Part shown: positions 11,816 through 51,848 of the stretch, piece after piece
Layout of the letters: the number at the start of each line of letters is the position of its first letter
Position numbering within the stretch: the first letter of the stretch is position 1
DNA from: Magnetococcales bacterium
GTDB taxonomy: Bacteria; Pseudomonadota; Magnetococcia; Magnetococcales; JADGBX01
Length of the DNA stretch: 64,000 bases
NCBI GenBank assembly: GCA_015231265.1
Contig: JADGBX010000003.1
Location: 2,829 to 66,828 of the forward strand
Direction: 5' to 3'
Position numbers and translations under genes: made by a program
The notes under the pieces: model-generated
The model's database searches: none
What the model was told of the DNA's origin: nothing
The model's input: the letters and a program-made list of their open reading frames with translations, nothing else

Positions 11816-13465
11816 ATGAACAAGAATAACGACCTGCTTGGAAAGTGGTTATCGTCTCTTGCCGCTGCTGCTGTGATCGTTCTTATGCCCTGTCAACAGA
11901 TCGAAGCGCAGGAGGGTTCGGTTGATCAGCCCTCCTCTATGAAACGCCAGATCGCGGAGGATCAGACCAGTGTTACCCGGAACGCACGACCTTTGGTTCC
12001 CATCGCATTGCAAGGGGCGCACCGGTTGACGTTGAGGGATTTTGTCCGCTTGGCGATGCAGGAAAACGATACGGTTCGGAGAGAGGAGCTGGAGGCCCGT
12101 ATCGCCGCTGCCGCTATCGAGAATGCCGAGTCGGTTTTTGAACCGATTCTAAGCGGATCGGTGGCCCGTGAACGTTCGTTTACCCGAACCGATGCAGTGG
12201 AGCAAGCGCAGTATTCCAGTCTCAGTGAATACCGATCCCGTACCAATACGATCGATATCGGGGTAGAAGGGCTGTTGCAGACAGGCGCTCGGGTCAAGGT
12301 GGGCTATGCCCAGGAGGATCCTACCAACGACCTGCAAAAGAATGTCAACCAAGGCCATGAAGTTAAAACCGAACTTGAAGTGAGTGTGACTCAACCGCTG
12401 CTGAAGAACTTCGGTCCCCGCGTCACCAGCACCACTGTCCGCATCGCCGAGTACGACGCCGAGATTGCCGAACAGAAGCGACGCCAGGTGATGATGGAGA
12501 CGGCAACCAAGGCGATCATCGGCTATCAGGAGCTACAGAAGGCGCAGATGTTATGGCAGCTGCGGCGGGAGAGTCTGGGTAAATCCCAGCGTCTTCTGGA
12601 CGAAATGGTGCAACTGATGCAAGCAGGCAGGCAGCCAGAGTCGGCAGTTCTTGATGCGGAGGCGAATAGTATCCAGCGACAGGTCGCACTGCGCACGGCA
12701 GAAAGCGCCCTGCAGACGGCAGTGGTCAAAGCACAGGATCTGTTGTTGGGCAGCGATGATACCCGGTTGCCCGTGCAGATTCTGGCAGCGGAATCCCTCT
12801 CCGACCCCATCACCAACCGAGTCGACCGTTCCGACCGAATGGTCCAACAGGCGCTGAAGGAGCACCCGGAGATTCAATCTGCCCGCCTCGGTACCCAGCG
12901 CGAGGAGGAGCGGCTGGTCTATGCCGACAATCAACGGCTGGTACAGTTGGATTTCTCGGGGAGTTATTCTCTCAATGGTCTGGACCGGCATGGGGACTCT
13001 TCGTTGGCGGATGCCATGAAACGGGATCACTCCGATTGGAGAATGGGTCTGGAGTTGAAGGTTCCCCTGGGCGGGGGCTGGAAGACCCGCAGCGAGTATA
13101 ATGCTGCCCTGCATAAACGGGATCAGGCCGCGCTGGAGATGCATGTGGCAAAAAAACGGCTGATCAACGGACTTCAGGAGCGCATGAATGCAGTGGATGC
13201 GGCTAGGGATCAGGTGGCTTATGCCCGTCAGGCTCTCCGTCTGCGGGAACGGATGCTGAAGAGCGAGCAGAGCATGTTCAAAGGCGGAAAAAGCTCCCTG
13301 CGAACCGTGATCATTCGGGAGGAGGGGGTGCTGCAAGCGCGAGAACAGGTGTTGGAAAAACGGTTTGAACTGGCCCGAGCCCAGGCACTGCTGGATATGA
13401 GCCGGGGGGTGCTGCTAGAGATGTTCGGCGTCGAGCCGACACCGGTTCAGAGGGAGGCATCATGA
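11816..13465 (+). CDS. TolC-family outer membrane efflux protein
   Basis: 549 aa with a signal peptide and two tandem OEP-type halves (LTLRDFVRLAMQEND..., long coiled helical segments). Confidence 0.8.
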   Translation: MNKNNDLLGKWLSSLAAAAVIVLMPCQQIEAQEGSVDQPSSMKRQIAEDQTSVTRNARPLVPIALQGAHRLTLRDFVRLAMQENDTVRREELEARIAAAAIENAESVFEPILSGSVARERSFTRTDAVEQAQYSSLSEYRSRTNTIDIGVEGLLQTGARVKVGYAQEDPTNDLQKNVNQGHEVKTELEVSVTQPLLKNFGPRVTSTTVRIAEYDAEIAEQKRRQVMMETATKAIIGYQELQKAQMLWQLRRESLGKSQRLLDEMVQLMQAGRQPESAVLDAEANSIQRQVALRTAESALQTAVVKAQDLLLGSDDTRLPVQILAAESLSDPITNRVDRSDRMVQQALKEHPEIQSARLGTQREEERLVYADNQRLVQLDFSGSYSLNGLDRHGDSSLADAMKRDHSDWRMGLELKVPLGGGWKTRSEYNAALHKRDQAALEMHVAKKRLINGLQERMNAVDAARDQVAYARQALRLRERMLKSEQSMFKGGKSSLRTVIIREEGVLQAREQVLEKRFELARAQALLDMSRGVLLEMFGVEPTPVQREAS

Positions 13466-14298
13466 CGCTCGGGCGTGTGGTGATAATCAGCGTGGTGGCG
13501 GGTCTGCTCGGGGTGATCAACCCGGCCTTGGCGGTGGAGCAGCGCGTCACCGGTTTCACCCGGGTCGTGGAGGACCTGGCTCTGGGACTGCCGGTGGCTG
13601 GGCGGATTCAACATCTTCGGGTCAAGGAGGGGGATAGAATCGCCCGAGGCCGGGTGATCCTCTCCCTGGACAAGCGGCTGGAGGATTTAGAGTACAAACG
13701 GCGGGTGGTCATTCGGGATGACCGAACCTTGCTGGATGCGGCCAGGCAGAAGGTGGAAATTCTTCGCCGTCAGCTCACCGCGACCCGAACCCTCTATGAA
13801 AACTCTCGCTCCGTCAGTCGGGATGAGCTGGACGCCAAGGAGCTGGAACTGGCCTCGGCCACGGCTGAACGTCAACGACTGGAACTGGCCGAGAAGACGG
13901 AGCGTCTGGAAGCCGATCTGGCTCGGGTCCAACTGGACCAACGGGTGCTGCGTGCGCCCACGGCGGGCCGGATCGTCAAAATCCATAAACGGCAGGGTGA
14001 GAGTGTTCAAACCCATGAACCGGTTGTGCAACTGGTGACCATCACCCCATGTCTCTTCGTCGCCAATATCGAAGAGGCCCTGTCGGAAAATATCCAAATG
14101 GGTATGAAGGTGGTGCTCCATCTCAAAACCGGCAGTCGCACGGTTCAGACCGAAGGCACCATCTCCTTCATCTCTCCGGTTTTGGATACCGCCAGCGGGT
14201 TGCTGGAGGTTCACGCCACCTTCGACAACCGGAAACCGGAGATACGCCCCGGTGTCATGGGGGAGATGCTGATTGAGGTGAGCGAACCGGAGTTGTAA
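13462..14298 (+). CDS. Small HlyD/MFP-family periplasmic adaptor
   Basis: 278 aa with an N-terminal anchor. Lipoyl-like hairpin halves VAGRIQHLRVKEGDRIARGRVILSLD and LRAPTAGRIVKIHKRQGESV flank a coiled coil. ATGA overlap with the upstream TolC gene. Confidence 0.8.
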   Translation: MTLGRVVIISVVAGLLGVINPALAVEQRVTGFTRVVEDLALGLPVAGRIQHLRVKEGDRIARGRVILSLDKRLEDLEYKRRVVIRDDRTLLDAARQKVEILRRQLTATRTLYENSRSVSRDELDAKELELASATAERQRLELAEKTERLEADLARVQLDQRVLRAPTAGRIVKIHKRQGESVQTHEPVVQLVTITPCLFVANIEEALSENIQMGMKVVLHLKTGSRTVQTEGTISFISPVLDTASGLLEVHATFDNRKPEIRPGVMGEMLIEVSEPEL

Positions 14299-26800: not shown

Positions 26801-27198
26801 CCATGCTGCCGACGGAGAAATTCACCATCGGCGGTTCCAGCACCGTGCGCGGTTATCGGGAGAGCGTCATCTCCCGCGATCAGGGCATGACAACAACCGT
26901 GGAGTGGCAGGTGCCGACGTCTCTACGCATGCCCTTTCCCTATGTGAGCGCACCGGACAGCGACGGTCAGGTCTCTTTGGCCGCCTTTTACGACTATGGC
27001 AAGAACTGGGATAAGATCGAGGACTCCACCGACCCTGAAGACCTCTCAAGTTATGGCTTCGGGGTGCTCTGGTCTCTGAACAAGAACTCCACCGCCTCCT
27101 TCTACTGGGGACGGCCTCTACGCAATGTCAAAGTATCGGGAGATAAATACTCTCAGGATCACGGTTACCACTTCAACGTCAACATAGCGACCTTCTGA
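23899..27198 (+). CDS. TpsB (ShlB/FhaC-family) outer membrane transporter with a roughly 550-aa N-terminal Pro/Lys/Arg-rich extension
   Basis: 1099 aa. The C-terminal roughly 540 aa have a POTRA-like region (IDAIQVVGSTVLSEQEIAELSAPYLNQAVTLEELYMLRDALTRRYIDRGY) and a beta-barrel (FTIGGSSTVRGY, terminal ATF). The N-terminal half is low complexity after a signal anchor. Confidence 0.85.
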   Translation: MVSKRISERDESVYLVVLIRYVRVRQSVYGIRLSTFVFALLVLFLFQQTAYAVQSPTVSPRRREILVDPQVIMDRVTVEEVTLPSIIHKVLNRLPSTPYSPLPFPPPLSKTDKIVLPTALPRRRNLLAYDSVDSASPRYQRPRLPISSPKRRQQLQSPVAGEGFLSLASVRLPSALPLNRAALPNRLPSSPLSKTQRESLPTISPRRRAVHSFQSTRISTVNLTEVVLPEVNPRKQEKKSTTEAAKTPLPKATPLAREKEPSVEVAKTPLPKATPLAREKEPSVEVAKTPLPKATPLSRVQESSAEVVKRAFSQVSPRKRVQSASVNAAKTELPEVAPKKQEREPSITVAKTVLPEAKPLKRKTEPPVEVAKAVMPETKPLKRDVVVDYFESNRVSGLERIERPKPKPMKRLASVEAAYRSSKATPWKHGAVPEQRLAGQGSEEALDTQWPAVQPKRRETSPLLERGQEDHVTTPEVLTKSDRKSASPWTSSDVPAQMLQGESVREQVLETLTDALAHHAELPEQPKKQTSTTVARAKPRSVQRVTRGLLLDEPVEEAPSKAPRAISPTFDMTPFAAPEEYVLPPLEEMDEDLAELTAVETFSIDAIQVVGSTVLSEQEIAELSAPYLNQAVTLEELYMLRDALTRRYIDRGYATSGAVLEEQEIGDGTVLIRIIEGQLDQIIITGNDKLRESFIRDRLQPTSSGPFNVKELEQRLQLLRQQPMIENIRTEVRPGVKQGLAVLTVTVEEAKPLQLGVSYGNRSAPNVGTIRRGIEGTYHPFGIGDIFTASFGRSRGAVEYNLSYSLPINAKDTTLSFGFSESTSVVVVAPFAELNITSENTTWYAAIEHPFYRDVNHELSASLKWQGRVSQTSLLGLPFSFTEAADRGETRINSVHLGQSWIYRDARQVLTTSSEFNLGVAIGDVTDNPTTADGQYLAWLGRSQYVRQFDFLESRAIVRSSLRLTDTPMLPTEKFTIGGSSTVRGYRESVISRDQGMTTTVEWQVPTSLRMPFPYVSAPDSDGQVSLAAFYDYGKNWDKIEDSTDPEDLSSYGFGVLWSLNKNSTASFYWGRPLRNVKVSGDKYSQDHGYHFNVNIATF
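24631..24819 (+). repeat. 63-bp in-frame tandem repeat x3 inside tpsB (AKTPLPKATPLAREKEPSVEV)
   Basis: Units at 24631-24693, 24694-24756 and 24757-24819. The first two are near identical and the third diverges in its second half. Confidence 0.85.
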
Positions 27199-29402: not shown

Positions 29403-29523
29403 GGCATATGTAAGAGGGAATGGAATACGATGGATTGGGTGTGTTGGTAGTATTCATACACAGCGGGTCATTGCTTGAGACACTCTTCGGCAGTCATCGG
29501 CTTAGCATTGCGTCGTTAAATCG

Positions 29524-39962: not shown

Positions 39963-40101
39963 GTGTGTATGCTCTACATATTAAACCGTTTACAATAATC
40001 AGTATTCGAGTCTGGACTGCAATGTCACAACATGATCAAATAGATCCATTCATGATGTGCTGTTTGATTGTGTGGGGTGTTTGGATTGGGGGGTAGAAAC
40101 A

Positions 40102-40773
40102 ATGCAGTGTGCAGTCTGTATTGAAAAAGGCAACAATCGGTGTGATGTCTCAGGATTTGATTGCTCAAAGGGACGATTGGACACATCGTCTTATCATGTT
40201 GCCGAGAACCAACCTTTTCACCGTTTCAGCGATAAAATCAAAACAGAATCCCCTGGAATCGTTCTTTCCAGGGTTGAAGAAATCATCGCGTTTTGCCGTA
40301 AGGCTGGGTACAAAAAGATCGGCATTGCCCTCTGCATAAGATTCGGTGAGCACGGCTATCAACTCTCCCGGATCCTGAAGAGGCACGCCTTCAAGGTTGA
40401 GTCCGTCTGCTGCAAAGTCGGTGGACTACAGAAACCGGATTATGGTGTCGATGTAGCCGAGGGGGATTCCGCGACCATTTGCGCCCCTGCCGGACAGGCG
40501 GAAATATTGAATAGGGCGGGAACCGATCTAAACATCCAGATGGGTCTCTGTGTGGGCCATGACATTCTATTCACAAAATATTCTGAAGCCCCTGTCACAG
40601 TCCTTGGTGTCAAGGATCGAGCCACAGATAATAATCCTCTAACTGTTCTCGTCGATCCGAAATGGAGAACACATTTTCAGATGTCGGCTCGAGCAGATCG
40701 CATCAGTAGAAACAGGGACGAATCCAAGGAGAATTATCTCCATATGATGATCAGTGAGCGTTCAGGTGGTTAG
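40102..40773 (+). CDS. Cys-rich metal-binding protein, DUF1847-like
   Basis: 223 aa from ATG 40102. MQCAVCIEKGNNRCD..FDC at the N-terminus and GLCVGHDILF later match my recollection of DUF1847. The stop TAG (40771-40773) coincides with the degenerate left end of a MITE-like element. Confidence 0.45.
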   Translation: MQCAVCIEKGNNRCDVSGFDCSKGRLDTSSYHVAENQPFHRFSDKIKTESPGIVLSRVEEIIAFCRKAGYKKIGIALCIRFGEHGYQLSRILKRHAFKVESVCCKVGGLQKPDYGVDVAEGDSATICAPAGQAEILNRAGTDLNIQMGLCVGHDILFTKYSEAPVTVLGVKDRATDNNPLTVLVDPKWRTHFQMSARADRISRNRDESKENYLHMMISERSGG

Positions 40774-41159: not shown

Positions 41160-41378
41160 ATACACTGCAAGATACTTATGAAAGTGTAGTTCTTGATTTG
41201 ATTGCATGTTATTGGCATTGATGGTGCATGTGCTCTCTAAATGTTCGTCAAATAATCTCATGAAAATATTTAACGAACAAATAGGATCCTGGTGTATCCG
41301 GTGTAGAGCCTGATTTGCGTGAATGGGGGAGTTGCGGCTTCATGATGATTCGTATTGATCGCCATAGAATACATTGAA

Positions 41379-43604
41379 ATGCCTGCAAATATTACTAAAT
41401 CTCTTTGTGCGGTGGTTCTTCTGATAGGTACGCAAGGGTGCACGGTCGTACCCGTCCCCATTCCGGTGCAGGAGCGGGTCTCGACGGCGATTGCCGACCG
41501 TCATGCCATGTTCACTGCTCAGAAACCGATCGTGGCACCTTTGACGCTTTCCGAAGCCATGGCGCGCGCCATTGCGTACAATCTGGATCATCGCCTGAAA
41601 TTAATGGAGGGGGTTCTTGCCAGCAATCAGCTGACTTCAGCACGTATGGAGCTTCTCCCCCGCTTGGCCGCTTCTGCCGGCTACATCAATCGCTCGAATC
41701 TGAACGCCTCGTCGAGTCGTACCCTGCTGACTGGCCGGGACTCTTCCGAACCCTCCATCTCATCCGATCGCAGTCAGGAGACGGCCGACCTGGCCCTGAG
41801 TTGGAACATCCTGGACTTCGGTGTCAGTTACTATCAGGCCAAACAGGAGAGCGATCGGCTCCTGATCACCCGCGAACGGCGCCGCAAGGTGGTGCACAAT
41901 CTCATGAGAGAGGTGCGTTTGGCCTATTGGCAGGCTGCCAGTGCCGAGCGGGTACAGTCGCAACTGATCGTGGTTATGAAGCAGGCGGAAACGGCGCTTA
42001 AAAGCGCTCGTTTGATCGAAGAGGAGCGCCTTGGAGCCCCTTTGGCCGCCTTGCGCTACCGTCGATCCCTTCTGGAGATCATCCGGCAGTTGGAGGAGCT
42101 GAGTGCCGAGATGTCTCTGGCTCGGATCACCCTCTCCGCTTTGATCAATGTCGAGCCTGGGACGCCGTTTACTCTGGCCGGAGCGGATGAGTCTCCAACA
42201 CCGGTTATTCTCCCTGATTTGGATCTGGAACAGCTTGAAAACCTGGCACTGTCGCAACGGCCCGAGCTGCGTGAAAAGGATTATGAGGTTCGCATCAATG
42301 CCACCGAGGTCAAAAAGACACTGGTGCGCATGTTGCCCGGTTTGGAGCTGAATCTGTCCGGAAACTACGACGGCAACAGTTTTCTGGTCAATCAGGGCTG
42401 GACTCAGGCCGGTTTGCGGGTGGCGTTCAATCTCTTCAATCTCTTCACCGTGTCGGACAAGGTTGCCGTTGTCGAGACACAGGGAGTGGTAACCAGAACA
42501 CAGCGTATGGCCCTGACCATGGCGGTATTGAGTCAGGTCCATATCGCTTGGCAGCAGTATCATGCGGCGCTTCGGCAGTTTGAACATGCCGAAGAGTTGT
42601 TCGACGTGAACCGGCAGATGCTGACCCACATGATCAACCGTGGCAAGGTCGACATGCAGCACGGGTTGGAGGAGATTCGCAGTTCGGTCAATACGATCAC
42701 CGCACTTCTGCAGAGAGACCAGTCCCATGCCCGCTGTCAGGAGGCGATGGGCCGACTCATCACGGCATTGGGTGTCGACCCCCTTCCCGAAACGATTGAA
42801 TCCAACGATCTCGAAAGCCTCACCCGCATGATCGAAACGATGATGGTGCAGTGGGAAAAGGAGGGATTTGCACTACAAGAGGGAGTGGTGCTTGATACAT
42901 CTCCAACTGTTTCGAGCGCTTCGCCGGTCGTCGATCCATCGGAGTTTTTGGGGGAAGCGAAGGAGATCCAACCGGGTCTGCATGGTCAGTCGGAGACGGT
43001 TGATCTGCCGGAAGAGCCGGGTCTGCATGATCAGTCGGAGACGGTTGATCTGCCGAAAGAGGGTGTGAAAACAGATTCTGAAATAGCCTCGGATCAGCAC
43101 GAACGGTTGGAGACGTTTGACCCGTTGGAAGAGAGTGTGAAAACGGATTCTGAAAGACCCTTGGAACAGCAAGATTCCACTGAAAATGTCGCAGATGAAT
43201 CCTCTGTGGAGTGGGTAGCCGTCGATACTGCTGTTGAAGCGGTAGAAGCCGATCATCCAGTTGAAGATGTTGTTGTCGAACCTTCCGTAGCAGAGGTTGC
43301 AGTCACGTTACCGGTTGCAGAGGGTGTCGAGAATGATCCTGTAGAAGATGGCAACGGGATGAAGTCTGGTTACGTTATTCAAGCCGGTGCCTATACCCGC
43401 ATGCGTGATGCCCGGATGTGGGAGACGCGTTTGATCGACAAAGGCTATGCCCCCACGATCCACACCGTTCAAAACTCGGCTGGGGAGAGCTGGCACTTTC
43501 TCTACATCAAACGGTTCGAAGGTTTCTCGAAAGCGAGGAATTTCTTGAAGGATTTTACGAGAAAAGAGAACATGGACGCATTCATTCACCCGCTCGGTCC
43601 GTAG
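41379..43604 (+). CDS. TolC-family outer membrane factor fused to an acidic repeat linker and a C-terminal SPOR domain
   Basis: Likely lipoprotein start MPANITKSLCAVVLLIGTQGC (the track ORF starts at TTG 41355). About 470 aa are OEP-type (LTLSEAMARAIAYNLDHRLK...). An Asp/Glu-rich repeat region follows. The last roughly 75 aa, GYVIQAGAYTRMRDARMWETRLIDKGYAPTIHTV..WHFLYIKRFEGFSKARNFLKDF, look like a SPOR fold. Confidence 0.75.
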   Translation: MPANITKSLCAVVLLIGTQGCTVVPVPIPVQERVSTAIADRHAMFTAQKPIVAPLTLSEAMARAIAYNLDHRLKLMEGVLASNQLTSARMELLPRLAASAGYINRSNLNASSSRTLLTGRDSSEPSISSDRSQETADLALSWNILDFGVSYYQAKQESDRLLITRERRRKVVHNLMREVRLAYWQAASAERVQSQLIVVMKQAETALKSARLIEEERLGAPLAALRYRRSLLEIIRQLEELSAEMSLARITLSALINVEPGTPFTLAGADESPTPVILPDLDLEQLENLALSQRPELREKDYEVRINATEVKKTLVRMLPGLELNLSGNYDGNSFLVNQGWTQAGLRVAFNLFNLFTVSDKVAVVETQGVVTRTQRMALTMAVLSQVHIAWQQYHAALRQFEHAEELFDVNRQMLTHMINRGKVDMQHGLEEIRSSVNTITALLQRDQSHARCQEAMGRLITALGVDPLPETIESNDLESLTRMIETMMVQWEKEGFALQEGVVLDTSPTVSSASPVVDPSEFLGEAKEIQPGLHGQSETVDLPEEPGLHDQSETVDLPKEGVKTDSEIASDQHERLETFDPLEESVKTDSERPLEQQDSTENVADESSVEWVAVDTAVEAVEADHPVEDVVVEPSVAEVAVTLPVAEGVENDPVEDGNGMKSGYVIQAGAYTRMRDARMWETRLIDKGYAPTIHTVQNSAGESWHFLYIKRFEGFSKARNFLKDFTRKENMDAFIHPLGP
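42972..43061 (+). repeat. 45-bp in-frame tandem repeat x2 in the TolC-SPOR linker (PGLHGQSETVDLPEE)
   Basis: 42972-43016 and 43017-43061 differ at only a few positions. A second shorter repeat (gtgtgaaaacagattctgaaa) recurs about 70 nt later. Confidence 0.8.
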
Positions 43605-43647
43605 AGGCGACGCCTTCGATAGAGGCAGAATTGATCCTCTTTGTACA

Positions 43648-46600
43648 GTGTCAAGATGGGAACGGGATATGTCGGATCATAAGCGCGCATCGGACGACTA
43701 CCGATCCGGTCCCAGCCTGCGGCTGATGGCCTTGGAACCGCGTGTACTGCTGGATGGTGCTGCGCTTGTTGCCGGTGTGGAGGTGGTTGCTGAAACCGAG
43801 TGCCCGGAACGATCGCATAGCTGTGTTGTTGATTCGGATGATAGAGCGACGCAGGCGGTTCCTGGGGAGAGTGGGAACGAGGGGTATGCCGGGCCGCCAC
43901 CGGAGAATCGGGAGGTCGTGTTCATCGATGCAGGGGTTGAGGATCAGGCGACACTTCTCAAAGATGTGACGCCTCACGCCGACATCGTATTCCTTGATCC
44001 ACGTCGCGACGGTATCCGCCAAATCAGTCAAGCCCTGGCAGGTCGTACCTCCGTTGAAGCGATCCACCTGATCTCCCATGGGGGAGCGGGCTCCTTGCAA
44101 CTGGGCAGTGGTACGCTCTCTGCCGAGACGCTTGCCCAGCACACGGAATCCCTCCGAAGTTGGCGTCACGCTCTGACCGCCGATGCCGATATTCTGATCT
44201 ACGGCTGCACTGTCGCTCAGGGTGAGCGGGGTGAGCGCTTCGTGCAGGCGTTGTCACACCACACCGGAGCCGACGTCGCCGCCTCCGATGATACCACCGG
44301 CAGCCGGGAGGGTGCCGATTGGACCCTGGAGTGGCGTACCGGCACCATCGAGTCGGTGATGGCCCTGGATAGTCGTGCCATGGCCGACTACTCCCAAACC
44401 CTTGCCACCATCACCGTCACCAATACCAACGACTCCGGAAGCGGCAGCTTTCGCCAAGCCATCACCGATGCCTCCAGCGGCGATACCATCACCTTCGATG
44501 GATCTCTCTCCGGTCAGACCATCAACATGACCAGCGGTCAGTATGCGCTTACCAAGGATCTCACCATCGACGGTGATCTCAACGACGACAACACCCCGGA
44601 CATCATCCTGGATGCCAGCGCCAGTAACTCCCGCATTTTCAACAACAGTGCCACCGTCTCCATCACCGGTCTGACCCTGCAGAACGCTGATGGCAACATC
44701 GGCAGTGGCGGGGGTATCTTCAACAGCGGCACCCTGACCCTCAGTGATTCGGCCCTGAGCAACATCACCGCTGACGGAACCAGTGGCGATGGTGGGGGTA
44801 TCCTGAGCTATGGTACTCTGACCATCTCCAACACCTCCTTCACCAATACGAGTTCCCTCGATAACGGCGGTGCCATCCGGTTTTGGGCCTCCGGCAAAAC
44901 CCTGACCATTACCGACAGTACGTTCACCAGTAACAGTGCCCCCCGGGGTGGTGCGATTCTGGTGACTGACGGAAATGCCTACATCGCCAACAGCACCTTT
45001 ACCAGCAACAGTGCCTCATCGGTAGGTGGTGCCATCTACTCGCTGGCGGGTGTGACGACGGTGGTCGGCAGCACCTTCACCAGCAACACGGCTGTCCAAG
45101 GCGGTGCCTTTTACAACGCGGCAACGCTGGACATCATCGACAGCACCATAACCGGCAACAGCACGACACTGACAACCGGACAATATTTGGGGGGGGGCAT
45201 TCGTCAGAAAGGGGGGACGGTTCGAGTCTATACCAGCACCATCGACAACAACACCGCAGGGCTTGGTGGTGGTATCTATGTCGGTGGCGGCGATGTGGAA
45301 CTCTACAGAACCACGATCTCCGGCAATACCGCAGGAACGACCGGTGCCGGTATCCGACAACGCTACGCCAGTGGTGATCTGACCATCGTCAGCAGCACCA
45401 TCGCTGGAAACAATGGGGATGGGCTCGTCATTCATGGTGATGCGGATTCCACGGTCATTACCAACAGCATCTTCGCCGACAATACCGGCGTCGACATCAA
45501 TGGCAACGTCACCAACTCCAATTTCAACATCATCGAAGATGCCGGTTCGGCCACCTTTACTGCTCAGGCCAACGACATCACCGGGGCCGACCCGTCGTTG
45601 GCGGCTTTGGCGACGGTGGCTGGCTACCCGACTCAGATTCATGCCCTCAACGGTGGCAGTAACGCCCTCAACAGTGGGGTAGGGGGGGCGGATCGGGGCG
45701 TGACCGTCACCAACTCCATCCCGGTTCTGGCCAACCTGGCAGGCGACACGCTCGCCTATACCGAAGACGATGCCGCGACGGTGATCGAGCAGGGTAGCGA
45801 CGCTACCGTCACCGACAGCGACTCCGGTAATTTCAATACCGGAACGCTCACCGTATCGATCTCCGCCAACCGGGTCAGCACCGAAGATGTTTTGTCGATC
45901 AACAATCAGGGCACCGGCTCCGGTCAGATTGGCCTCTCCGGTACGACGGTGACCTATGAAGGGGCCACCATCGGTACGATGACTGGGGGGAGCGGCACCG
46001 ATGATCTGGTGGTGACCTTTTCGGAGTTTTCCACGGCGACGGCGGTGACGGCTCTGCTCAAGAATATCACCTATCAGAACAGTAACACCGGTGATCCCTC
46101 CACCAATGCTCGCACGGTGGATTTCGTCGTCACCGACGGCGATGGTGGTACATCGGCTACGTCCAGTGCAACCGTCAACATCACGGCCGTCAACGACGCC
46201 CCGACCATCAGTGCCCTCTCCGGTGACGATCTGAGTTATGAAGCCGGAGACGGCGCCAAGGTGATCGATCAGGGGGGCAATGCTTCGGTCGGTGATGTGG
46301 ACTCCACCGACTTCAATGGCGGCACGCTCACGGTCTCCATCAGCAGCAATCGGGTCTCCGGTGAGGATCAACTGGCGATACGCAATCAGGGCACCGCCGC
46401 CGGGGAGATTGGTACGACCGGTGCCAACGTCACCTATGGCGGCGTGGTGATCGGCACCTTTACCGGCGGGACGGGAACCAATGATCTGGTCATTACCTTC
46501 AACGCCGCCTCCACACCGACAGCAGCCGGAGTCCTGCTTCAGAACATCACCTACGAGGATACCAACTCCGACACACCTTCCGAGAACACCCGCACCATCC

Positions 46601-48399
46601 AGTTCGTACTCACCGATGGAGATGGTGGAACCTCCGCCACGTACAACACCACGGTGACCTGGGTGATTCCTGTTGTGGTTCCGGCCCCGCCTCCCGCCAT
46701 GCCTCCTCCCGACGTCGGGGGGGATGAGATGGATGATCCGGAAGAGGAGGAGTTCGTCATCCACAATGACGAGCTGCTGACCGGAGCCCGCCAAGAGGAT
46801 CCCAAACAGCGCCACTGGCCCTGGGAGCGGTTTTCGCTCTATTCGAGCTGGATTCCCCATGAAGGGCGCTATACCAGCCACATCCAGGAGCTGATCGACT
46901 CTTTGAACCGGACCCTTCAGTGGTCCTATGAACCGGGTGAAATCGACAGTTCCCAGCGTTTGATCACCAAACATGTGCAGGGGATGGAGGGACTCGAAAA
47001 GGAGGGCCGTCACAAACCGGGTGCTACCGGGCTTCAGATCCAGGAAGATCTGTCATCCGATCTCGTAGAGGATCTGGAACTGCGCTCTAAAGCCGAAGGT
47101 GGGTTGATCACCCTGGAGAAGACCGATGCCGAACCGGTGGAGGAGGAGGAAGCCCAGAAGGAATCAGCGCCGAAAGAGGGTGTCGTATCCCCAGGAACAA
47201 CCGGGCCCGTGCGTGTCGAGTCGGGCATTCCGGACAGGTCACTTCCCGCTTCCGGAACCTTCACTATTCCGATTCCCAAGGACGCCTTTGCCCATCGCGA
47301 TGCCAACACCTCTCTCACCCTGCATGGCCGATTAGCGGATGGTTCGCCGCTGCCGGAGTGGCTGTCACTGGATGTCAAGGAGCGGCACTTCATCAGCCGG
47401 GGAGATAACCAAGAACACGGCACCTGGCAGATCGTGCTGACGGCACGGGATACCAATGGCAATGAAGCCACGATCACCCTGGAATTGACCATCGGAACCG
47501 ATTTTCGCAGCCTTGAGGTAGAGCCCGCATCCGCAGATGGGGCCATGCTCTCGCCGCCGGTGGGCAAACCGGCACTGAGTGCCCAGTTCCGGGATCATGG
47601 CCGTTCTGCCTTTGATCGTGCCCGGTCGGCACTGTTGTCGCTGTTGGTTCCGGTGCTTTGCACCCTGGTCCTGTTTCCGGACCCGGTTCAGGCGACTGAT
47701 GCTCCGGTTCGCGCTGCTTTCAAACGGGACGCCCCGGTACGCGCTCAGGTGCGATCCACCCGGCGAACGGTCCTCTCGGCGGAGGTGTCGGCCCGAGTGG
47801 TGCGCATTGAACACAAAGCCGGGGAACGGTTTGCAAAAGGAGCCCTGCTGGTCACGCTGGACTGTGCGATCCAGCAGGCCCAGTTGAAACAGGCGCAGGC
47901 GGCCCACCACTTGGCTCTGAAGAAGCGTGCTGCCAACGCCCGTCTCGCCGATTTGCTCTCAAGCACACCCCTTGAAGTGGAAACCACCGAGGCGGAAGCT
48001 GCGCGTACTGAGGCGAATGCCTTCATCCTGGAAAAACAGGTCGAGCGATGCCGGATCATGGCCCCCTTTTCCGGGCGTATCGTCGAATGGAAGACCGACC
48101 CGCACCGCTTCGTTCAAGCTGGACAGGCGTTGGTAGAGATCGTCGATGATCGCCATCTGGAACTCACCTTTCTGGTGCCCTCCCGCCGCATTAATACACT
48201 GAAAGCGGGTCACCCTCTGCGTCTGACGGTGGATGAGACCGGCAAGAATTATCAGGCGGTTCTGGTGCGACGGGGGGCAGTAGTGGATCCGGTAGGGCAG
48301 CGGATTCGGGTGACGGCGGAGATTCGCAGCGATCACACCGATCTTCTGCCCGGCATGAGCGGCTCCATCACGTTTATCGACCGGAAACAGGTCCACTGA
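43648..48399 (+). CDS. Giant surface-type protein: DUF4347 N-terminus, beta-helix repeats, two cadherin-like modules and an Ig-like module, continuing in frame into a TM segment plus a complete small MFP (HlyD-type) module
   Basis: 1583 aa. LEPRVLLDGAA plus VVFIDAGVEDQATLLKDV...IHLISHGGAGSLQLGS...ADILIYGCTVAQGERG is DUF4347. GGAI/GGGI-type beta-helix repeats follow. Two roughly 155-aa modules (about 45712-46200 and 46201-46660) end in VTDGDGGTSAT. Residues 1300-1583 (from ATG 47545) have a TM segment LLSLLVPVLCTLVLF and lipoyl-hairpin halves VSARVVRIEHKAGERFAKGALLVTLD and IMAPFSGRIVEW. Confidence 0.8.
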   Translation: MSRWERDMSDHKRASDDYRSGPSLRLMALEPRVLLDGAALVAGVEVVAETECPERSHSCVVDSDDRATQAVPGESGNEGYAGPPPENREVVFIDAGVEDQATLLKDVTPHADIVFLDPRRDGIRQISQALAGRTSVEAIHLISHGGAGSLQLGSGTLSAETLAQHTESLRSWRHALTADADILIYGCTVAQGERGERFVQALSHHTGADVAASDDTTGSREGADWTLEWRTGTIESVMALDSRAMADYSQTLATITVTNTNDSGSGSFRQAITDASSGDTITFDGSLSGQTINMTSGQYALTKDLTIDGDLNDDNTPDIILDASASNSRIFNNSATVSITGLTLQNADGNIGSGGGIFNSGTLTLSDSALSNITADGTSGDGGGILSYGTLTISNTSFTNTSSLDNGGAIRFWASGKTLTITDSTFTSNSAPRGGAILVTDGNAYIANSTFTSNSASSVGGAIYSLAGVTTVVGSTFTSNTAVQGGAFYNAATLDIIDSTITGNSTTLTTGQYLGGGIRQKGGTVRVYTSTIDNNTAGLGGGIYVGGGDVELYRTTISGNTAGTTGAGIRQRYASGDLTIVSSTIAGNNGDGLVIHGDADSTVITNSIFADNTGVDINGNVTNSNFNIIEDAGSATFTAQANDITGADPSLAALATVAGYPTQIHALNGGSNALNSGVGGADRGVTVTNSIPVLANLAGDTLAYTEDDAATVIEQGSDATVTDSDSGNFNTGTLTVSISANRVSTEDVLSINNQGTGSGQIGLSGTTVTYEGATIGTMTGGSGTDDLVVTFSEFSTATAVTALLKNITYQNSNTGDPSTNARTVDFVVTDGDGGTSATSSATVNITAVNDAPTISALSGDDLSYEAGDGAKVIDQGGNASVGDVDSTDFNGGTLTVSISSNRVSGEDQLAIRNQGTAAGEIGTTGANVTYGGVVIGTFTGGTGTNDLVITFNAASTPTAAGVLLQNITYEDTNSDTPSENTRTIQFVLTDGDGGTSATYNTTVTWVIPVVVPAPPPAMPPPDVGGDEMDDPEEEEFVIHNDELLTGARQEDPKQRHWPWERFSLYSSWIPHEGRYTSHIQELIDSLNRTLQWSYEPGEIDSSQRLITKHVQGMEGLEKEGRHKPGATGLQIQEDLSSDLVEDLELRSKAEGGLITLEKTDAEPVEEEEAQKESAPKEGVVSPGTTGPVRVESGIPDRSLPASGTFTIPIPKDAFAHRDANTSLTLHGRLADGSPLPEWLSLDVKERHFISRGDNQEHGTWQIVLTARDTNGNEATITLELTIGTDFRSLEVEPASADGAMLSPPVGKPALSAQFRDHGRSAFDRARSALLSLLVPVLCTLVLFPDPVQATDAPVRAAFKRDAPVRAQVRSTRRTVLSAEVSARVVRIEHKAGERFAKGALLVTLDCAIQQAQLKQAQAAHHLALKKRAANARLADLLSSTPLEVETTEAEAARTEANAFILEKQVERCRIMAPFSGRIVEWKTDPHRFVQAGQALVEIVDDRHLELTFLVPSRRINTLKAGHPLRLTVDETGKNYQAVLVRRGAVVDPVGQRIRVTAEIRSDHTDLLPGMSGSITFIDRKQVH

Positions 48400-48400
48400 C

Positions 48401-49744
48401 GTGGGGCGGACCGATCAGCTCGAATCGTTGAGCACGCTTCTGCAACTGGAGCGTGAAGCGCGGCAGGCCGACAGCGTATCCGCCCTCGCGTTTCTGATGG
48501 TCAACGGTAGTCACGCTCTGACTCCCTACAGACAGGCGTGCCTCTGGCAGGCCGACTCTCATGGATCAGGCAGAATCATCGCTTTCTCCGGCCAGGAGAA
48601 CCACGACCCCGACGCCCCGTTTCCGCTCTGGATGAATCGTCTTCTCACTCGGCTTCACCAACAGCATGACGTCGATTTCCGCCCTATGACCGCGCAGGAC
48701 CTCGCCGCTGATGATGCCACGGCGTGGGAGGAGTGGTTGCCGCCCCACGCGCTCTGGATCGTCTTGAAGTCTCCCGAGGGTCATAGGCTCGGCGGTCTGT
48801 TTCTGGCTCGGGATCACCCTTGGACAGCGGCGAATGAGCCGCTTCTCAGCCATCTCGTCGAGAGCTACGGCCACGCCTGGAACGCTCTGACCCTCCGCCG
48901 CAAGAGGCTGTTCACCTGGCCCGTTGATCGTTTCAGAGCAGGGCGCAGAATCCTTCTTTTCGTTGCAGTCGTCGGGACTCTGATGATACCCGTCCATCAA
49001 TCAACTCTGGCGCCCGCCTCGGTCACGGCTGTCGAACCGACCATCGTCCGCTCCGCCATGGATGGTGTCGTCGATGAGATTCTCGTCGAGCCCAATCAGC
49101 GTGTAGAGGTGGGAACGCCTCTGCTTCGATTGGATGATCGTACCCTGGCCAACCGGTTGGCGGTCACCCATCGTATCCTGGAGGCGTCTCGGACCGAATT
49201 GCGTCAGTTGGAGCAGACTCTTCTTACCCATGGCAGTAGCCATGAGCCGTTGATTCGACTCGAGGGGAGAATTCAGCAGACCCTGGTCGAACGTGATCAT
49301 CTGCGCGCTCTGCTCGAACGCATCGAGATTCGAGCCGAACGGTCGGGTGTGGTCATCATGGACCGGCAGGAGAGCTGGCAGGGAAGACCCGTGGTGACGG
49401 GCCAACGTATCCTGATGATTGCGGACCCAAGTGATACGGAGATCTCCATCACGCTGCCGCTGGAGAACGCCATTCCACTGCCGGATGCTGCACCCGTCAC
49501 TCTGCATCTCAGTTCGGATCCGAGCCGCTCCCATGCGGGGCGACTGCGGTATCGGGGCTTTCAACCGGTTGTCCAACCCGAGGGCTTCGCCGCCTATCCG
49601 TTGAAGGCACGTTTCGTGGACCACACGAGCCGTCCCCGCCTGGGGCTTCGGGGAACAGTCACGATTCAGGGTGAGAAGATCCCCTTGTTTTACTATCTGT
49701 TCCGACGCCCTGTGTCGGCGTTCCGGCGTTTAACGGGGTTCTGA
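48401..49744 (+). CDS. HlyD-family membrane fusion protein with a roughly 190-aa N-terminal cytoplasmic (GAF-like?) domain
   Basis: 447 aa with a GTG start 1 nt after the upstream stop. TM segment ILLFVAVVGTLMIPV, then VRSAMDGVVDEILVEPNQRVEVGTPLLRLD, a coiled coil, and IRAERSGVVIM. Confidence 0.8.
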   Translation: MGRTDQLESLSTLLQLEREARQADSVSALAFLMVNGSHALTPYRQACLWQADSHGSGRIIAFSGQENHDPDAPFPLWMNRLLTRLHQQHDVDFRPMTAQDLAADDATAWEEWLPPHALWIVLKSPEGHRLGGLFLARDHPWTAANEPLLSHLVESYGHAWNALTLRRKRLFTWPVDRFRAGRRILLFVAVVGTLMIPVHQSTLAPASVTAVEPTIVRSAMDGVVDEILVEPNQRVEVGTPLLRLDDRTLANRLAVTHRILEASRTELRQLEQTLLTHGSSHEPLIRLEGRIQQTLVERDHLRALLERIEIRAERSGVVIMDRQESWQGRPVVTGQRILMIADPSDTEISITLPLENAIPLPDAAPVTLHLSSDPSRSHAGRLRYRGFQPVVQPEGFAAYPLKARFVDHTSRPRLGLRGTVTIQGEKIPLFYYLFRRPVSAFRRLTGF

Positions 49745-49745
49745 C

Positions 49746-51848
49746 GTGCACAGTCCCCACCACACGTCCCTCAGGGAGGAGTTGACGCTCCACGTCGGCC
49801 CCAAGACCAGGGATGGTTCTCCCACCTGGTCATTGCATGATCCGGTGAACAACCGATTCTACCGTCTTGACTGGCCGGTGTTCGAGATCCTTGCCCGCTG
49901 GTCGCTGGCAGATCCCACTCGTATTATCGATGACATCAATCGCACCACCACGTTGCAGATCGATAGCACCCATCTGGCTGACGTTGAGAGATTTCTCAAC
50001 CAGCATCAACTCCTCAACACTTTGGGACAATCCAGCTCTTCCCGAGTCAGGAAACCCCGGCGTGGATGGATGATGCGTCTTCTGCACGGCTATCTCTTCT
50101 TTCGGATCCCACTGGTGCGTCCCGAGGGATTTCTCAACCGGACGCTGCCTCTGGTCGATCGGGTGTTCTCACGTGGATTTCTGTTGTTGATGCTCGTGAT
50201 CGGTGGGGTGGGGCTCTATCAGATTTCAAGGCAATGGGATCTCTTCCTGGCCTCCTTTGCCGAGATCGCAACGCTTCAAGGTGCTCTGGGCATGGCCGCT
50301 GCCCTGGTGCTGACAAAAACTCTCCACGAACTGGGCCATGCCTATGCGGCCCGCCGATTCGGGTGTCATGTTCCCGTGATGGGCGTGGCCTTTCTCGTGA
50401 TGTGGCCGGTGCTCTACACCGATGTCACCGATAGCTGGAAGCTGAACGACAAGCGTCAGCGCATGTTGGTCGGCAGTGCAGGAATGCTCTCTGAACTGGC
50501 TCTGGCTTCCATAGCCACTTTGGCCTGGAATCATGTATCACCGGGTCCACTCCAGAACACGCTCTTCTTCATCGCCGTCAGTAGTTGGCTGGTGAGTCTG
50601 ACCATCAACGCGAATCCCTTCATGAAGTTCGATGGCTACTTCGTGCTGTCGGATTGGCTTGAGGTCGAGAATCTGCACGAACGGGCGACGGCTCTGGGGC
50701 AGTGGCGTCTGCGTGAGATGCTCTGGGGATTGGGCGATTCTCCCCCCGAACCCCTCTCACCCCGCATGCGGCGCTCCATGATTCTCTTTGCATGGGCTAC
50801 CTGGATCTATCGTCTGATCCTGTTTCTCGGCATTGCGTTGTTGGTCTATCAGTTATTTTTCAAACTGTTGGGACTGTTTCTGATGGTTGTGGAGGTTGTT
50901 TGGTTCATCATCCGTCCGGTATTCATGGAGCTGCGCCGTTGGACGACGCCACGCTATCGGCCCAGACTCAACAGCCATGCGGCCATCACCATTCTTGCCC
51001 TTTGTGTTGTTGCCATCATCACGGCGCTTCCCATCACCACCCGACTGGCCTTACCGGCTATTTACAAGCCGGAACAACAGAGAGTCCTCTACGCCCCCAC
51101 ATCCGGGCAGGTAGAGAGCCTCCCGGCCGCCCTTGGAGACTCCGTTGCCAAGGGGGATCCACTGATCACCCTCTTCGATCCGGACATGGCCTTTTCCATT
51201 GAACAGAGCAGCCGATTGATTGCCATGCTGGAGAAGCAGCTTGCCATTCAGGGCATGGGAGACACCGCTGGCAGTGACGCATTTCCCTTGCTCAGAAAGG
51301 AGCTGGAAACCGCATACACACGGCGGCAGGGCTTATTTGAACAGCGTGATCGATTGGTGTTGACCGCCCCCTTCGACGGACGCATTGCTCGGATCATGGT
51401 GCAGGAGCAGGGCTGGGTCAGGGAGAAGAGTCCTTTGATTGAAATGACCAATATTGAGCAGTGGGTGGTGGAGGCGTACCTACCCGAGTCGGATTATGCT
51501 GCTGTTCGAATCGGTGATCCCGCACGGTTTCGGCCAGAAATGCCCGAGGCTCCGGAGTGGTCACTTCGTGTCAGTGAGATTAACACCGCTGCGGTCGCAC
51601 ACCTCTCTGAACCGATACTCTCATCACGCTACGGTGGTGATGTCGCCACCTGGCCGGGAGTTCGGGATAACAAACTGGTTCCCGTGTCGAATCTGTACCG
51701 TCTTCGCTTGAGCATCGTATCCACTGCTGTCGGCTCAGATTGGCCGGTCATGCGGGGCACGGTGATGATCTCCGGAGATCGGCAGTCTCTCTATTCAATT
51801 GTGCGTTCATGGATCACCGATGTTCTGATTCAGGAGAGTGTATTTTAG
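49746..51848 (+). CDS. Polytopic site-2-protease (peptidase M50) domain fused to a C-terminal MFP-like periplasmic domain
   Basis: 700 aa with a GTG start 1 nt after the upstream stop. HELGH at residues 194-198 (50325-50339) lies in a TM context, and NANPFMKFDGY is the N..P....DG motif of S2P. There are several TM segments. The C-terminal roughly 250 aa have lipoyl-like halves YAPTSGQVESLPAALGDSVAKGDPLITL and LTAPFDGRIARIMV. Confidence 0.8.
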   Translation: MHSPHHTSLREELTLHVGPKTRDGSPTWSLHDPVNNRFYRLDWPVFEILARWSLADPTRIIDDINRTTTLQIDSTHLADVERFLNQHQLLNTLGQSSSSRVRKPRRGWMMRLLHGYLFFRIPLVRPEGFLNRTLPLVDRVFSRGFLLLMLVIGGVGLYQISRQWDLFLASFAEIATLQGALGMAAALVLTKTLHELGHAYAARRFGCHVPVMGVAFLVMWPVLYTDVTDSWKLNDKRQRMLVGSAGMLSELALASIATLAWNHVSPGPLQNTLFFIAVSSWLVSLTINANPFMKFDGYFVLSDWLEVENLHERATALGQWRLREMLWGLGDSPPEPLSPRMRRSMILFAWATWIYRLILFLGIALLVYQLFFKLLGLFLMVVEVVWFIIRPVFMELRRWTTPRYRPRLNSHAAITILALCVVAIITALPITTRLALPAIYKPEQQRVLYAPTSGQVESLPAALGDSVAKGDPLITLFDPDMAFSIEQSSRLIAMLEKQLAIQGMGDTAGSDAFPLLRKELETAYTRRQGLFEQRDRLVLTAPFDGRIARIMVQEQGWVREKSPLIEMTNIEQWVVEAYLPESDYAAVRIGDPARFRPEMPEAPEWSLRVSEINTAAVAHLSEPILSSRYGGDVATWPGVRDNKLVPVSNLYRLRLSIVSTAVGSDWPVMRGTVMISGDRQSLYSIVRSWITDVLIQESVF

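Follow-up and report, generated by a model that had tools for sequence, protein, structure and literature searches.

Giant adhesin-like cargo and small periplasmic adaptor encoded in one reading frame: a candidate lineage-specific fusion within an uncharacterised envelope-spanning module

On one contig of a single MAG from an uncultured magnetotactic-type bacterium of the Magnetococcales, a small periplasmic adaptor (MFP) shares one open reading frame with a giant adhesin-like protein. This frame (43648..48399; like its own parts and the neighboring module genes, on the forward strand) comprises 1583 codons without an in-frame stop in the window, by which we mean the whole 64,000-nucleotide stretch of contig JADGBX010000003.1 analysed here. 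We give an even chance to the reading that it represents a lineage-specific in-frame fusion of two normally separate genes and is genuine as assembled. The public record likewise holds it as a single CDS of 1576 aa (MBF0186443.1), not marked as a pseudogene; the record begins at ATG 43669, the mechanical ORF call at GTG 43648. The claim of the initial annotation that the giant frame runs without a stop into an MFP is thus borne out, both by the length of the frame and by its deposition as one CDS.

The cargo part (43669..47640, through the end of a conserved tail motif) retains intact both terminal motifs that are typical of DUF4347 cargo proteins. A comparison of 19 cargo N-termini yields the family consensus ALE[PQ]R[IML]MFDGAA, which the window protein matches with MALEPRVLLDGAA at residues 27-39 (motif ALEPRVLLDGAA, 43729..43764). 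The DUF4347 domain lies at residues 90-252 (43915..44403; PF14252, E = 9.7e-59), and the last cargo domain, at residues ~1190-1295 (47215..47532; '...DGSPLPEWLSLD...'), is He_PIG/Cadg-like: phmmer matches over query positions 1183-1295 fall on the last domain of giant proteins in other loci (L003, L009, L016, L021, L027 and L064), and PF05345 is present in its homologues P0002 and P0003. A Pfam scan of all 1583 aa detected no RTX nonapeptide repeats (HemolysinCabind; E ≤ 0.01). In the cargo family, a He_PIG-like last domain is followed by a C-terminal tail motif (consensus G[KR]xxLxxQ[FL]…LLxxL), and the window cargo has both; its tail motif, PPVGKPALSAQFRDHGRSAFDRARSALLS, occupies residues 1303-1331 (47554..47640). 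This was the sole significant match when an HMM made from the tails of 20 other loci was compared with the six-frame translation of the window (E = 6.9e-5; next match 0.48). The motif is C-terminal in nine of nine independent proteins, with 1-26 aa after it, and in other genomes overall 0-26 aa separate it from the stop, whereas 252 aa follow it in the window protein.

Most of what follows is a small periplasmic adaptor. Its mature part (47695..48399, residues 1350-1583 plus the stop; ~234 aa) comprises a lipoyl domain, a short α-hairpin and a β-barrel. All three MFP profiles match this part above their cutoffs: TIGR01730 with 104.7 bits (cutoff 94.9), HlyD_3 (PF13437) with 68.5 bits (E = 1e-18; cutoff 22.2) and HlyD_D23 (PF16576) with 42.2 bits (E = 7e-11; cutoff 30). 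In the AF2 model, residues 1361-1580 (pLDDT >90) form the lipoyl domain, a hairpin of 29+26 aa and the β-barrel, and Foldseek matches the model to MexA, AcrA and MacA at E~1e-15 (TM 0.6-0.78). Missing is the membrane-proximal (MP) domain, which is typical of RND- and MacA-type adaptors and not of every MFP; the model stops past the β-barrel, and of the 322 positions of TIGR01730, those from 10 to 244 are matched. Profile scores, model and fold comparison thus agree with the initial identification of the C-terminal part as a small HlyD-type MFP. On a profile of 59 free-standing small MFPs, the fused adaptor scores 250 bits (E = 2e-78) with the invariant residues kept, and its closest relative, P0309, is a free-standing protein of 293 aa with 46% identity. 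A 278-aa MFP encoded elsewhere in the window (13462..14298) had been put forward as matching in size and architecture. Its architecture does match, but at 23% identity and with a family-profile score of 46 bits, where the fused MFP reaches 250, we rejected it as a close paralogue or spare copy. The genes at 14-21 kb, considered as a paralogous module for their similar ORF sizes, were likewise set aside, since Pfam identified them as Tex and a two-component system.

Between the cargo and the mature adaptor lies a putative internal signal peptide of the Sec type (residues 1324-1349, 47617..47694), which we called by inspection and with a simple script. It consists of an n-region RAR, the h-region SALLSLLVPVLCTLVLF and the c-region PDPVQA, whose V and final A take positions -3 and -1 of a presumed cleavage site between VQA and TD. 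This n/h/c layout is that of the N-terminal signal peptides in the free small MFPs analysed, of which 59 of 62 have K or R ahead of the hydrophobic core and 60 of 62 an AxA-like site, at a median distance of 9 aa from ATG to core. In the window protein, by contrast, the signal peptide is not N-terminal but sits 1323 residues from the start of the ORF. Its hydrophobic stretch (residues 1327-1343), previously taken for a membrane anchor, is indeed the only such segment in the whole fused protein, but it has the layout of a cleavable Sec signal peptide, as in the free homologues.

The tail motif of the cargo and the signal peptide of the adaptor share eight residues in one frame: in …FDRARSALLS, the final conserved residues of the cargo tail simultaneously form the n-region and open the h-region. 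This overlap is the true junction. The in-frame ATG at 47545..47547, from which the MFP module had been proposed to start, is not; it lies within the cargo, three codons ahead of the tail-motif match at residue 1303, and residues 1303-1331 are cargo tail and not adaptor. Near the h-region, the fused adaptor has no start codon with an SD sequence, and no stop precedes it for 1349 codons.

The fused state appears to be singular. In all 62 related small-adaptor genes compared (62/62), the adaptor is a separate gene, and an exhaustive phmmer search of 1.84e9 representative proteins revealed no second fusion among the 150 matches listed; the query contained the He_PIG domain, so that the top matches were multi-repeat giants, and all 150 were re-scored locally. 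Word-indexed searches and searches of metagenome contigs yielded no fused relative either. More generally, no relatives closer than 44-46% were found in 5.8e9 clusters, the 1.84e9 representatives, GTDB genomes and JGI metagenomes, with the nearest ones at 44% for the protease described below (M50-HlyD) and 46% for the small MFP. Some candidates for fused relatives were rejected. P0227 aligns over the junction (query 8-191) but does not belong to the MFPs and ends in a different hydrophobic tail, while the long stop-to-stop ORFs with small MFPs in L010, L052, L054 and L059 overlap the OEP gene in another frame and are a high-GC artefact. The covalent cargo-adaptor fusion suggested by the initial annotation is encoded by the assembled and deposited sequence, but it is a singleton whose persistence and function are conjectural.

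The genomic surroundings of the join are conserved. In 86 related loci, we find a module with the order OEP, free small MFP, HlyD, M50-HlyD. Its first gene in the window encodes a TolC-like outer-membrane factor (OEP) with a C-terminal SPOR domain (41355..43604, start codon uncertain; PF02321, E = 3e-28; SPOR, E = 1e-5). Two nucleotides past the stop of the fused ORF (48399) begins the gene of a mid-size HlyD-type adaptor (48401..49744; MBF0186444.1), which has a cytoplasmic N-domain (1-179), a transmembrane segment (180-198) and a periplasmic HlyD part. This is followed by M50-HlyD (49746..51848; MBF0186445.1), which unites an S2P-type intramembrane metalloprotease with a periplasmic HlyD adaptor domain. 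The small MFP is found directly upstream of mid-HlyD and M50-HlyD both in the window and in 58 of the 62 related genes. Of these 62, 53 have the OEP directly upstream and none has a giant there (0/62), whereas in the window this place is taken by the cargo; the window is therefore unusual in gene order as well as in the fusion. Giants similar to the cargo, DUF4347 proteins with conserved N- and C-terminal motifs, do occur beside the module, namely in 34 of the 86 loci. Beyond the four module genes and the giant, these loci share no conserved neighbor, and no conserved ATPase was found in the module. Likewise, no ABC transporter is present among the module genes or the scanned large ORFs of the window, and the OEP-cargo boundary displays neither flanking repeats nor a remnant MFP 5' end. 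Of 600 genome stretches inspected, at least 570 contain a relative of M50-HlyD, and such relatives are found in >4000 protein clusters. Genera with culturable members, Chromobacterium, Phytobacter, Pseudomonas and Azospirillum, carry the module as well (loci L011, L015, L005 and L041). Our literature search returned nothing on the module, the function of DUF4347 or the cargo motifs.

M50-HlyD is the S2P gene that had been noted two genes downstream of the junction. It matches PF02163 with 32.0 bits (cutoff 27.2), and its motifs HELGH (194-198) and NANPFMKFDG (288-297) are intact and lie in transmembrane helices. Across 57 sequences, there is no variation at H194, E195, H198, N288, P291 or D296. 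The proteases that its M50 domain resembles most are those that cleave RiPP leaders (daptide, YydH/LiaK), and not RseP; no PDZ domains were detected in it. A Foldseek search with its model returned adaptor matches only and none for the protease part.

To account for the fused ORF, we consider two steps the most economical. A cargo gene would have come between the OEP and small-MFP genes, and a small in-frame deletion would then have removed the last few codons of the cargo, its stop, any spacer, and the start codon and n-region of the adaptor. We infer this deletion from the motif overlap together with a 6-nt direct repeat that can be read at the junction (CTGTTG-TCG-CTGTTG, 47632..47646) and is a weak candidate for the microhomology involved. 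The fusion probably arose through a small deletion, and neither through a simple stop loss nor through a one-base indel. A one-base indel as an artefact would make use of ATG 47597 (frame +1) and TGA 47697 (frame +2) and imply a gene overlap of ~100 nt, which we judge unlikely; the other frame combination has no start codon. As for a stop loss, the TCG of codon 1327 or 1331 would once have been the TAG stop of the cargo, and TTG 47635 or TTG 47644 the original start of the adaptor. TCG is a single substitution away from TAG at both codons, and some cargo tails extend only ~21 aa past G[KR] (e.g. in L031). We nevertheless consider this course very improbable: the adaptor would be left with a TTG start codon without an SD sequence and with a signal peptide lacking a K/R n-region and having an h-region of just 10-12 aa, unlike 59 of 62 homologues, and the cargo tail would be cut ahead of its conserved LLxxL part. 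As the eight-residue overlap leaves no room for a stop, a spacer and a start, the lost stop codon that had been offered as one explanation is insufficient alone.

An equally slim chance attaches to dual expression, in which the cell would also make a free adaptor precursor that starts at ATG 47545 (or GTG 47560) and uses the cargo tail as an extended n-region. The in-frame ATG does exist, the mature adaptor would be identical once signal peptidase has cut, and the heptamer AGATGGG precedes both ATG 43669 and ATG 47545. However, the G-run stands merely 2-3 nt from ATG 47545 and provides no usable SD sequence, a promoter-like site is absent from 46800-47800, and the ATG is 33 aa away from the hydrophobic core, compared to a median of 9 in the free homologues; moreover, an in-frame ATG, GTG or TTG within ~30 codons is expected by chance. 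With this ATG lying upstream of the tail motif, the earlier suggestion of an MFP made from an internal start thus finds no support. It is unlikely, though a possibility to be reckoned with, that the sequence at the join was misassembled or miscalled in the consensus, or that this population carries a fresh deleterious deletion, with a non-functional product whose cargo is not secretable and/or whose adaptor is not exported. Such a reading would agree with the uniqueness of the fusion, both against 62 small-MFP genes and, among the matches listed, against 1.84e9 representative proteins, with the MAG origin of the sequence, for which there is no second assembly, and with the usual position of the cargo tail at a free C-terminus, where burial could block its recognition. 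It is at odds with the integrity of both halves, which retain all family motifs and invariant residues across 4.7 kb, and with a join that keeps a complete n/h/c signal peptide as well as a complete tail motif. Furthermore, a one-base indel does not explain the join, and a chimeric mis-join would not restore the canonical order, because the OEP already lies to the left of the cargo.

If the fusion is genuine, the established rules for Sec and signal peptidase allow a prediction of the fate of its product. The giant N-terminal part would remain in the cytoplasm, while the internal signal peptide would insert N-in/C-out and the 234-aa adaptor would be translocated. The first protease expected to act on the junction segment is signal peptidase I, which would cut between VQA and TD and release a normal mature adaptor. 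Cleavage of an internal signal peptide after ~1320 residues is plausible, and the adaptor could in this way still be freed from the fused protein. The cargo, in turn, would stay tethered to the membrane at its C-terminus, beside its tail motif, by what is left of the signal peptide, and this remnant may then be cleared by an S2P-type protease or extracted during export.

This predicted fate also invites an adaptive interpretation, to which we assign little probability. The fusion would have been selected as a cargo-adaptor polyprotein, in which the internal signal peptide exports the adaptor and tethers the cargo tail at the inner-membrane M50-HlyD machine, so that one translation product supplies the periplasm with a stoichiometric adaptor subunit, and in which signal peptidase I and then the M50 protease of the module cleave in an RseA-like manner to free the cargo for export. 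Every functional element is preserved by the join, the active-site motifs of the M50 domain are intact and invariant, and an N-in single-pass segment with a short periplasmic stub after signal-peptidase cleavage has the classic form of an S2P substrate; RseP is known to eliminate signal peptides (PMC8144685). On the other hand, the fusion is a singleton without evolutionary persistence, and the M50 domain is nearest to RiPP leader-cleaving proteases and not to RseP. M50-HlyD is also found in all modules without the fusion; it must therefore have another primary role, and its presence says nothing specific about the fusion. Of the link initially drawn between the S2P gene and the junction, the N-in single-pass, RseA-like topology stands, but M50-HlyD is constant where cargo and adaptor are separate. 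S2P cleavage of the junction segment would hence be topologically reasonable, but not specific. Like RseA, the fused protein is predicted to have a large cytoplasmic N-terminal part, one transmembrane segment and a periplasmic C-terminal part that a first protease can remove, as in the regulated intramembrane proteolysis by RseP and the clearance of signal peptides by S2P proteases (PMC8144685, PMC10470546).

The module as a whole bears comparison with several known systems. With type I secretion (HlyB-HlyD-TolC type), for which LapA and SiiE are cargo examples, it shares a TolC-family outer-membrane factor, a mid-size HlyD with a transmembrane segment and a cytoplasmic N-domain, and an adjacent giant repetitive cargo that has no N-terminal Sec signal and ends in a conserved, uncleaved-looking C-terminal tail. 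It differs in having no ABC transporter, the inner-membrane part being an M50 protease that carries an adaptor domain, in having three adaptor-like proteins instead of one, in the lack of detected RTX repeats in the cargo and, in the window, in the covalent joining of the cargo to one adaptor. The type I secretion of giant adhesins has been reviewed elsewhere (PMC8277102). The fold of residues 1361-1580 resembles that of the periplasmic adaptors of tripartite RND, ABC and MFS pumps (MexA, AcrA, MacA and EmrA); these differ from the window adaptor, which has no membrane-proximal domain, measures ~234 aa in its mature form and is partnered by M50-HlyD instead of a pump. By inspection, its relatives are also exported by a plain signal peptide, without a lipobox or transmembrane anchor. 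Free small MFPs such as P0309 and P0001, which are annotated only generically, belong to the same sequence family and take the same place before mid-HlyD and M50-HlyD. Unlike them, the window adaptor has no start codon of its own, an internal signal peptide and a cargo upstream. A conceptual analogue is found in type V secretion, where passenger and transport part are united in one polypeptide in autotransporters (type Va) and separate in two-partner secretion (type Vb). There, too, components occur as separate genes or as a single polypeptide that is later cleaved; however, the proteins and the mechanism are unrelated, and both states are widespread and conserved in type V, as opposed to the single fused case here.

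On its own, the fusion is a curiosity of a single genome and may be a recent accident. Its join, however, defines two short elements, the conserved C-terminal tail of the cargo and the signal peptide of the adaptor, and it led us to a widespread and apparently unstudied envelope-spanning module composed of an OEP, a small soluble MFP, a TM-anchored HlyD and an M50 protease-HlyD. We regard this uncharacterised module as the more interesting find. Provided that processing follows the predicted course, the fused protein would serve as a construct for asking whether the tail needs a free end to work as a secretion signal, and whether the M50 domain acts on membrane-embedded cargo ends. Should the polyprotein reading prove true, we would have here the first case in nature of a substrate tied covalently to its own tripartite secretion apparatus, and a direct handle on cargo recognition by an ABC-less, protease-containing, TolC-dependent system.

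The open reading frame at 43648..48399 (+) joins a giant DUF4347 cargo protein to a small periplasmic adaptor (MFP) without an in-frame stop in 1583 codons. GenBank holds it as a single CDS of 1576 aa from ATG 43669 (MBF0186443.1), with no record of a shorter product from an internal start; its label, 'efflux RND transporter periplasmic adaptor subunit', is taken from the C-terminal part. Pfam/NCBIfam searches assign aa 90-252 to DUF4347 (E 1e-58) and roughly aa 1357-1576 to an MFP. The C-terminal 284-aa piece matches HlyD_3 (E 1e-18), HlyD_D23 (E 7e-11) and TIGR01730 (104.7 bits, above its cutoff of 94.9), and the fused MFP reaches 250 bits with a small-MFP family profile. In an AlphaFold2 model of residues 1290-1583, pLDDT exceeds 90 from residue 1361 on; the modelled adaptor consists of a lipoyl domain, a 29+26-residue hairpin and a β-barrel, lacks a membrane-proximal domain, and finds MexA, AcrA and MacA in Foldseek (E~1e-15). 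These data bear out the initial annotation's stop-free frame running into a small MFP, and both halves are intact family members. The fused frame is real as assembled, but it is a single case from a metagenome-assembled genome, and its functional status is uncertain.

The fused gene follows an outer-membrane factor of the TolC type (OEP, 41355..43604) and precedes mid-HlyD (447 aa, 48401..49744), M50-HlyD (700 aa, 49746..51848) and an AsnB-like gene. Mid-HlyD comprises a cytoplasmic N-domain of ~180 aa, one TM segment and a periplasmic adaptor part. M50-HlyD (100% identical to MBF0186445.1) keeps the HELGH and NxxPxxxxDG motifs intact in a multi-TM region; a periplasmic adaptor domain comes after this region. 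Its M50 domain most closely resembles RiPP leader-cleaving proteases, with a daptide_HExxH score of 163 bits, which is under that model's cutoff, and with matches to YydH/LiaK. The OEPs of such modules carry varied C-terminal extensions, such as SPOR (window 41355-43604), Cds6_C (L002 5767-7812) and SH3_3 (L086 8178-10037), of which the SPOR and SH3 types suggest cell-wall anchoring. Within the window's OEP gene, the linker preceding the SPOR domain contains three imperfect direct repeats of ~72 nt (42973-43161), which are 65-78% identical to the reference copy and start 45 and 72 nt apart. A DUF1847 protein gene just 5' of the module (40057-40773) is not kept beside it in other loci.

We collected 80 related loci from GTDB species genomes (Proteobacteria, Nitrospirota and others) via M50-HlyD protein alignment, and six further loci from other look-ups. 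The recurring gene order in these 86 loci is OEP, small MFP, mid-HlyD, M50-HlyD. Of the 62 small-MFP genes, 53 directly follow an OEP, and in the other nine a contig end cuts off the upstream gene; mid-HlyD is directly 3' in 58, and a giant directly 5' was seen in 0 of 62. Giants resembling the window's cargo adjoin the module in 34 of the 86 loci, 5' of OEP, 3' of M50-HlyD, or in the interval between small MFP and mid-HlyD. In L009, L027 and L064 (also L014 and L035), a giant's tail runs straight into mid-HlyD with no small MFP between them, and the contigs end upstream; these loci probably share the order of L043, L052 and L054, namely OEP, small MFP, giant, mid-HlyD. M50-HlyD relatives fall into more than 4000 protein clusters (E<=1e-10) and occur in at least 570 of 600 inspected genome stretches.

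The nearest relative of the fused adaptor, P0309 from Magnetococcales (46% identity, 293 aa), is free-standing in canonical order. An exhaustive phmmer search with residues 1180-1583 against 1.84 billion representative proteins yielded many giants alongside small MFPs 243-326 aa long. The fusion is unique within the data reached, because only the window's own protein carried a small-MFP domain in a chain longer than 326 aa among the 150 matches listed (local re-scoring), and JGI metagenome contigs held nothing closer than 40%. These data contained no orthologue near enough for a base-by-base comparison of the junction.

Giants of other loci share a C-terminal tail motif of the type G[KR]xxLxxQ immediately before the stop codon, for instance AGKPALHEQFRQHGRPAFDQQIAEWLQAEDVV in L025 and SGKPGLTRQLQMVGSKGFEHQRLRLLDSLASIG… in L020. 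We trained a profile on 20 of these tails, the window's own left out. Run against the six-frame translation of the window, it gave a single significant match, PPVGKPALSAQFRDHGRSAFDRARSALLS (residues 1303-1331; E 6.9e-5; second-best match, 0.48). Nine proteins outside the training set have 1-26 residues between the end of the motif and the C-terminus, against 252 in the window. Since the motif is C-terminal in other giants, ATG 47545 (M1300), from which the adaptor had been thought to begin, lies inside the cargo, three codons before P1303. The free small MFPs (n=62) start with short Sec-type signal peptides: 59 have K/R right in front of the hydrophobic core, 60 have an AxA-like site behind it, and the nearest upstream ATG lies at a median of 9 aa from the core. 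The window segment RAR-SALLSLLVPVLCTLVLF-PDPVQA/TD (1324-1349) has this same layout, is the sole hydrophobic segment of the fused frame, and has its nearest ATG 33 aa upstream. The hydrophobic segment noted in the initial annotation is thus present, but its layout is that of a signal peptide rather than a TM anchor. Tail motif and signal peptide overlap by eight residues in the same reading frame, and both are kept complete across the join.

The tail motif is common among giants but not universal, because in another Magnetococcales locus (L002 2-5698) the giant's tail, …IGKLPTITPFDLSKG…, is divergent and was missed by the profile. Others end in a hydrophobic '…LS[IV]G[FY]V[LV]W.VR.G.L…' (C-termini of L055 12211-18399 and of P0227), which may be another class of C-terminal anchor or signal. 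At the opposite end, 20-70 aa from the start, giants carry a strongly conserved motif ALE[PQ]R[IML]MFDGAA (window 43729-43764; L011, L020, L025, L031, L040, L050, L052, L054, L055, L056, L061, L068, L074, L075, L078, L079, L082); next come a linker of variable sequence and DUF4347. Speculatively, this motif might mark leader cleavage or recognition, because the M50 domain resembles RiPP leader proteases.

By general Sec and signal-peptidase rules, the cargo part of ~1320 residues would stay cytoplasmic, the internal signal peptide would insert N-in/C-out with the positive charges of RAR on its N side, and the adaptor would be translocated. Cleavage by SPase I at VQA/TD would release a normal mature adaptor, which probably still occurs, and would leave the cargo with a signal-peptide remnant as a C-terminal tether beside the tail motif. 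The suggested action of an S2P on the junction is mechanistically coherent, because the predicted topology (N-in, single pass, with a periplasmic part that can be removed) resembles that of RseA, and because RseP of E. coli clears signal peptides (PMC8144685). The presence of M50-HlyD, however, is no evidence for it, because this protein is constant where cargo and adaptor are separate genes.

Among the three readings originally considered, a covalent fusion is favored; it is the one encoded by the sequence as assembled and deposited. Production of the adaptor from an internal start finds little support: there is no sigma-70-like promoter match in 46800-47800 (and one terminator-like match, at chance level), the in-frame ATG/GTG/TTG codons at 47545, 47560, 47635, 47644 and 47653 lack a convincing SD, and the nearest ATG lies 33 aa away against a median of 9. 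The heptamer AGATGGG occurs 5' of both ATG 43669 (within 43650-43668, 8-nt spacer) and ATG 47545 (within 47533-47544, 3-nt spacer); this may be coincidence or may reflect a weak SD-like element.

Simple loss of a stop codon fits poorly, because the overlapping motifs leave no space for stop, spacer and start; reverting TCG1327 or TCG1331 to TAG would give an adaptor that starts at TTG without an SD and whose signal peptide has no charged n-region. A single-base indel, whether genuine or an artefact, would require a gene overlap of about 100 nt, from ATG 47597 (frame +1) to TGA 47697 (frame +2), and the alternative frame pairing has no start codon. A chimeric assembly join would not bring back the canonical order, because OEP already lies 5' of the cargo. 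The best-fitting origin of the fusion would be a small in-frame deletion, possibly at the CTGTTG…CTGTTG repeat (47632-47646), after a cargo gene had come between OEP and small MFP; the OEP-cargo boundary shows neither flanking repeats nor a remnant MFP 5' end.

Elsewhere in the window lie two other gene groups. An orphan pair at 11816-14298 comprises an OEP (549 aa) and, downstream with a 4-bp start/stop overlap, a 278-aa MFP (from 13462); it has no adjacent inner-membrane partner, and Tex lies downstream on the opposite strand. This MFP, originally likened to the fused one, matches it in architecture but not in sequence family (23% identity; 46 versus 250 bits), and falls outside the M50-module family. 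A two-partner-secretion-like cluster at 23899-34050 encodes an unusually long ShlB/POTRA protein (1099 aa, N-terminal extension of ~600 aa), a TPR-CHAT protease-like protein (734 aa) and a TPS-domain exoprotein (1508 aa).

We found no paper on the module, DUF4347 function or the cargo terminal motifs, and, among solved structures, only generic MFPs and a weak match to an S2P. With its TolC-like OEP, HlyD-type adaptors and adjacent giant cargo with a C-terminal motif, the module resembles type I secretion systems; unlike these, it lacks an ABC transporter and any other conserved ATPase, comprises three adaptor-like proteins, and has a protease as its polytopic inner-membrane component. It should not be filed as a classical T1SS. 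The four-gene envelope module (window 41355-51848; L001-L086) is widespread and apparently uncharacterized, and the case described here is a gene fusion within this recognizable, tripartite-type system, whose module and cargo motifs are a more valuable lead than the fusion itself.
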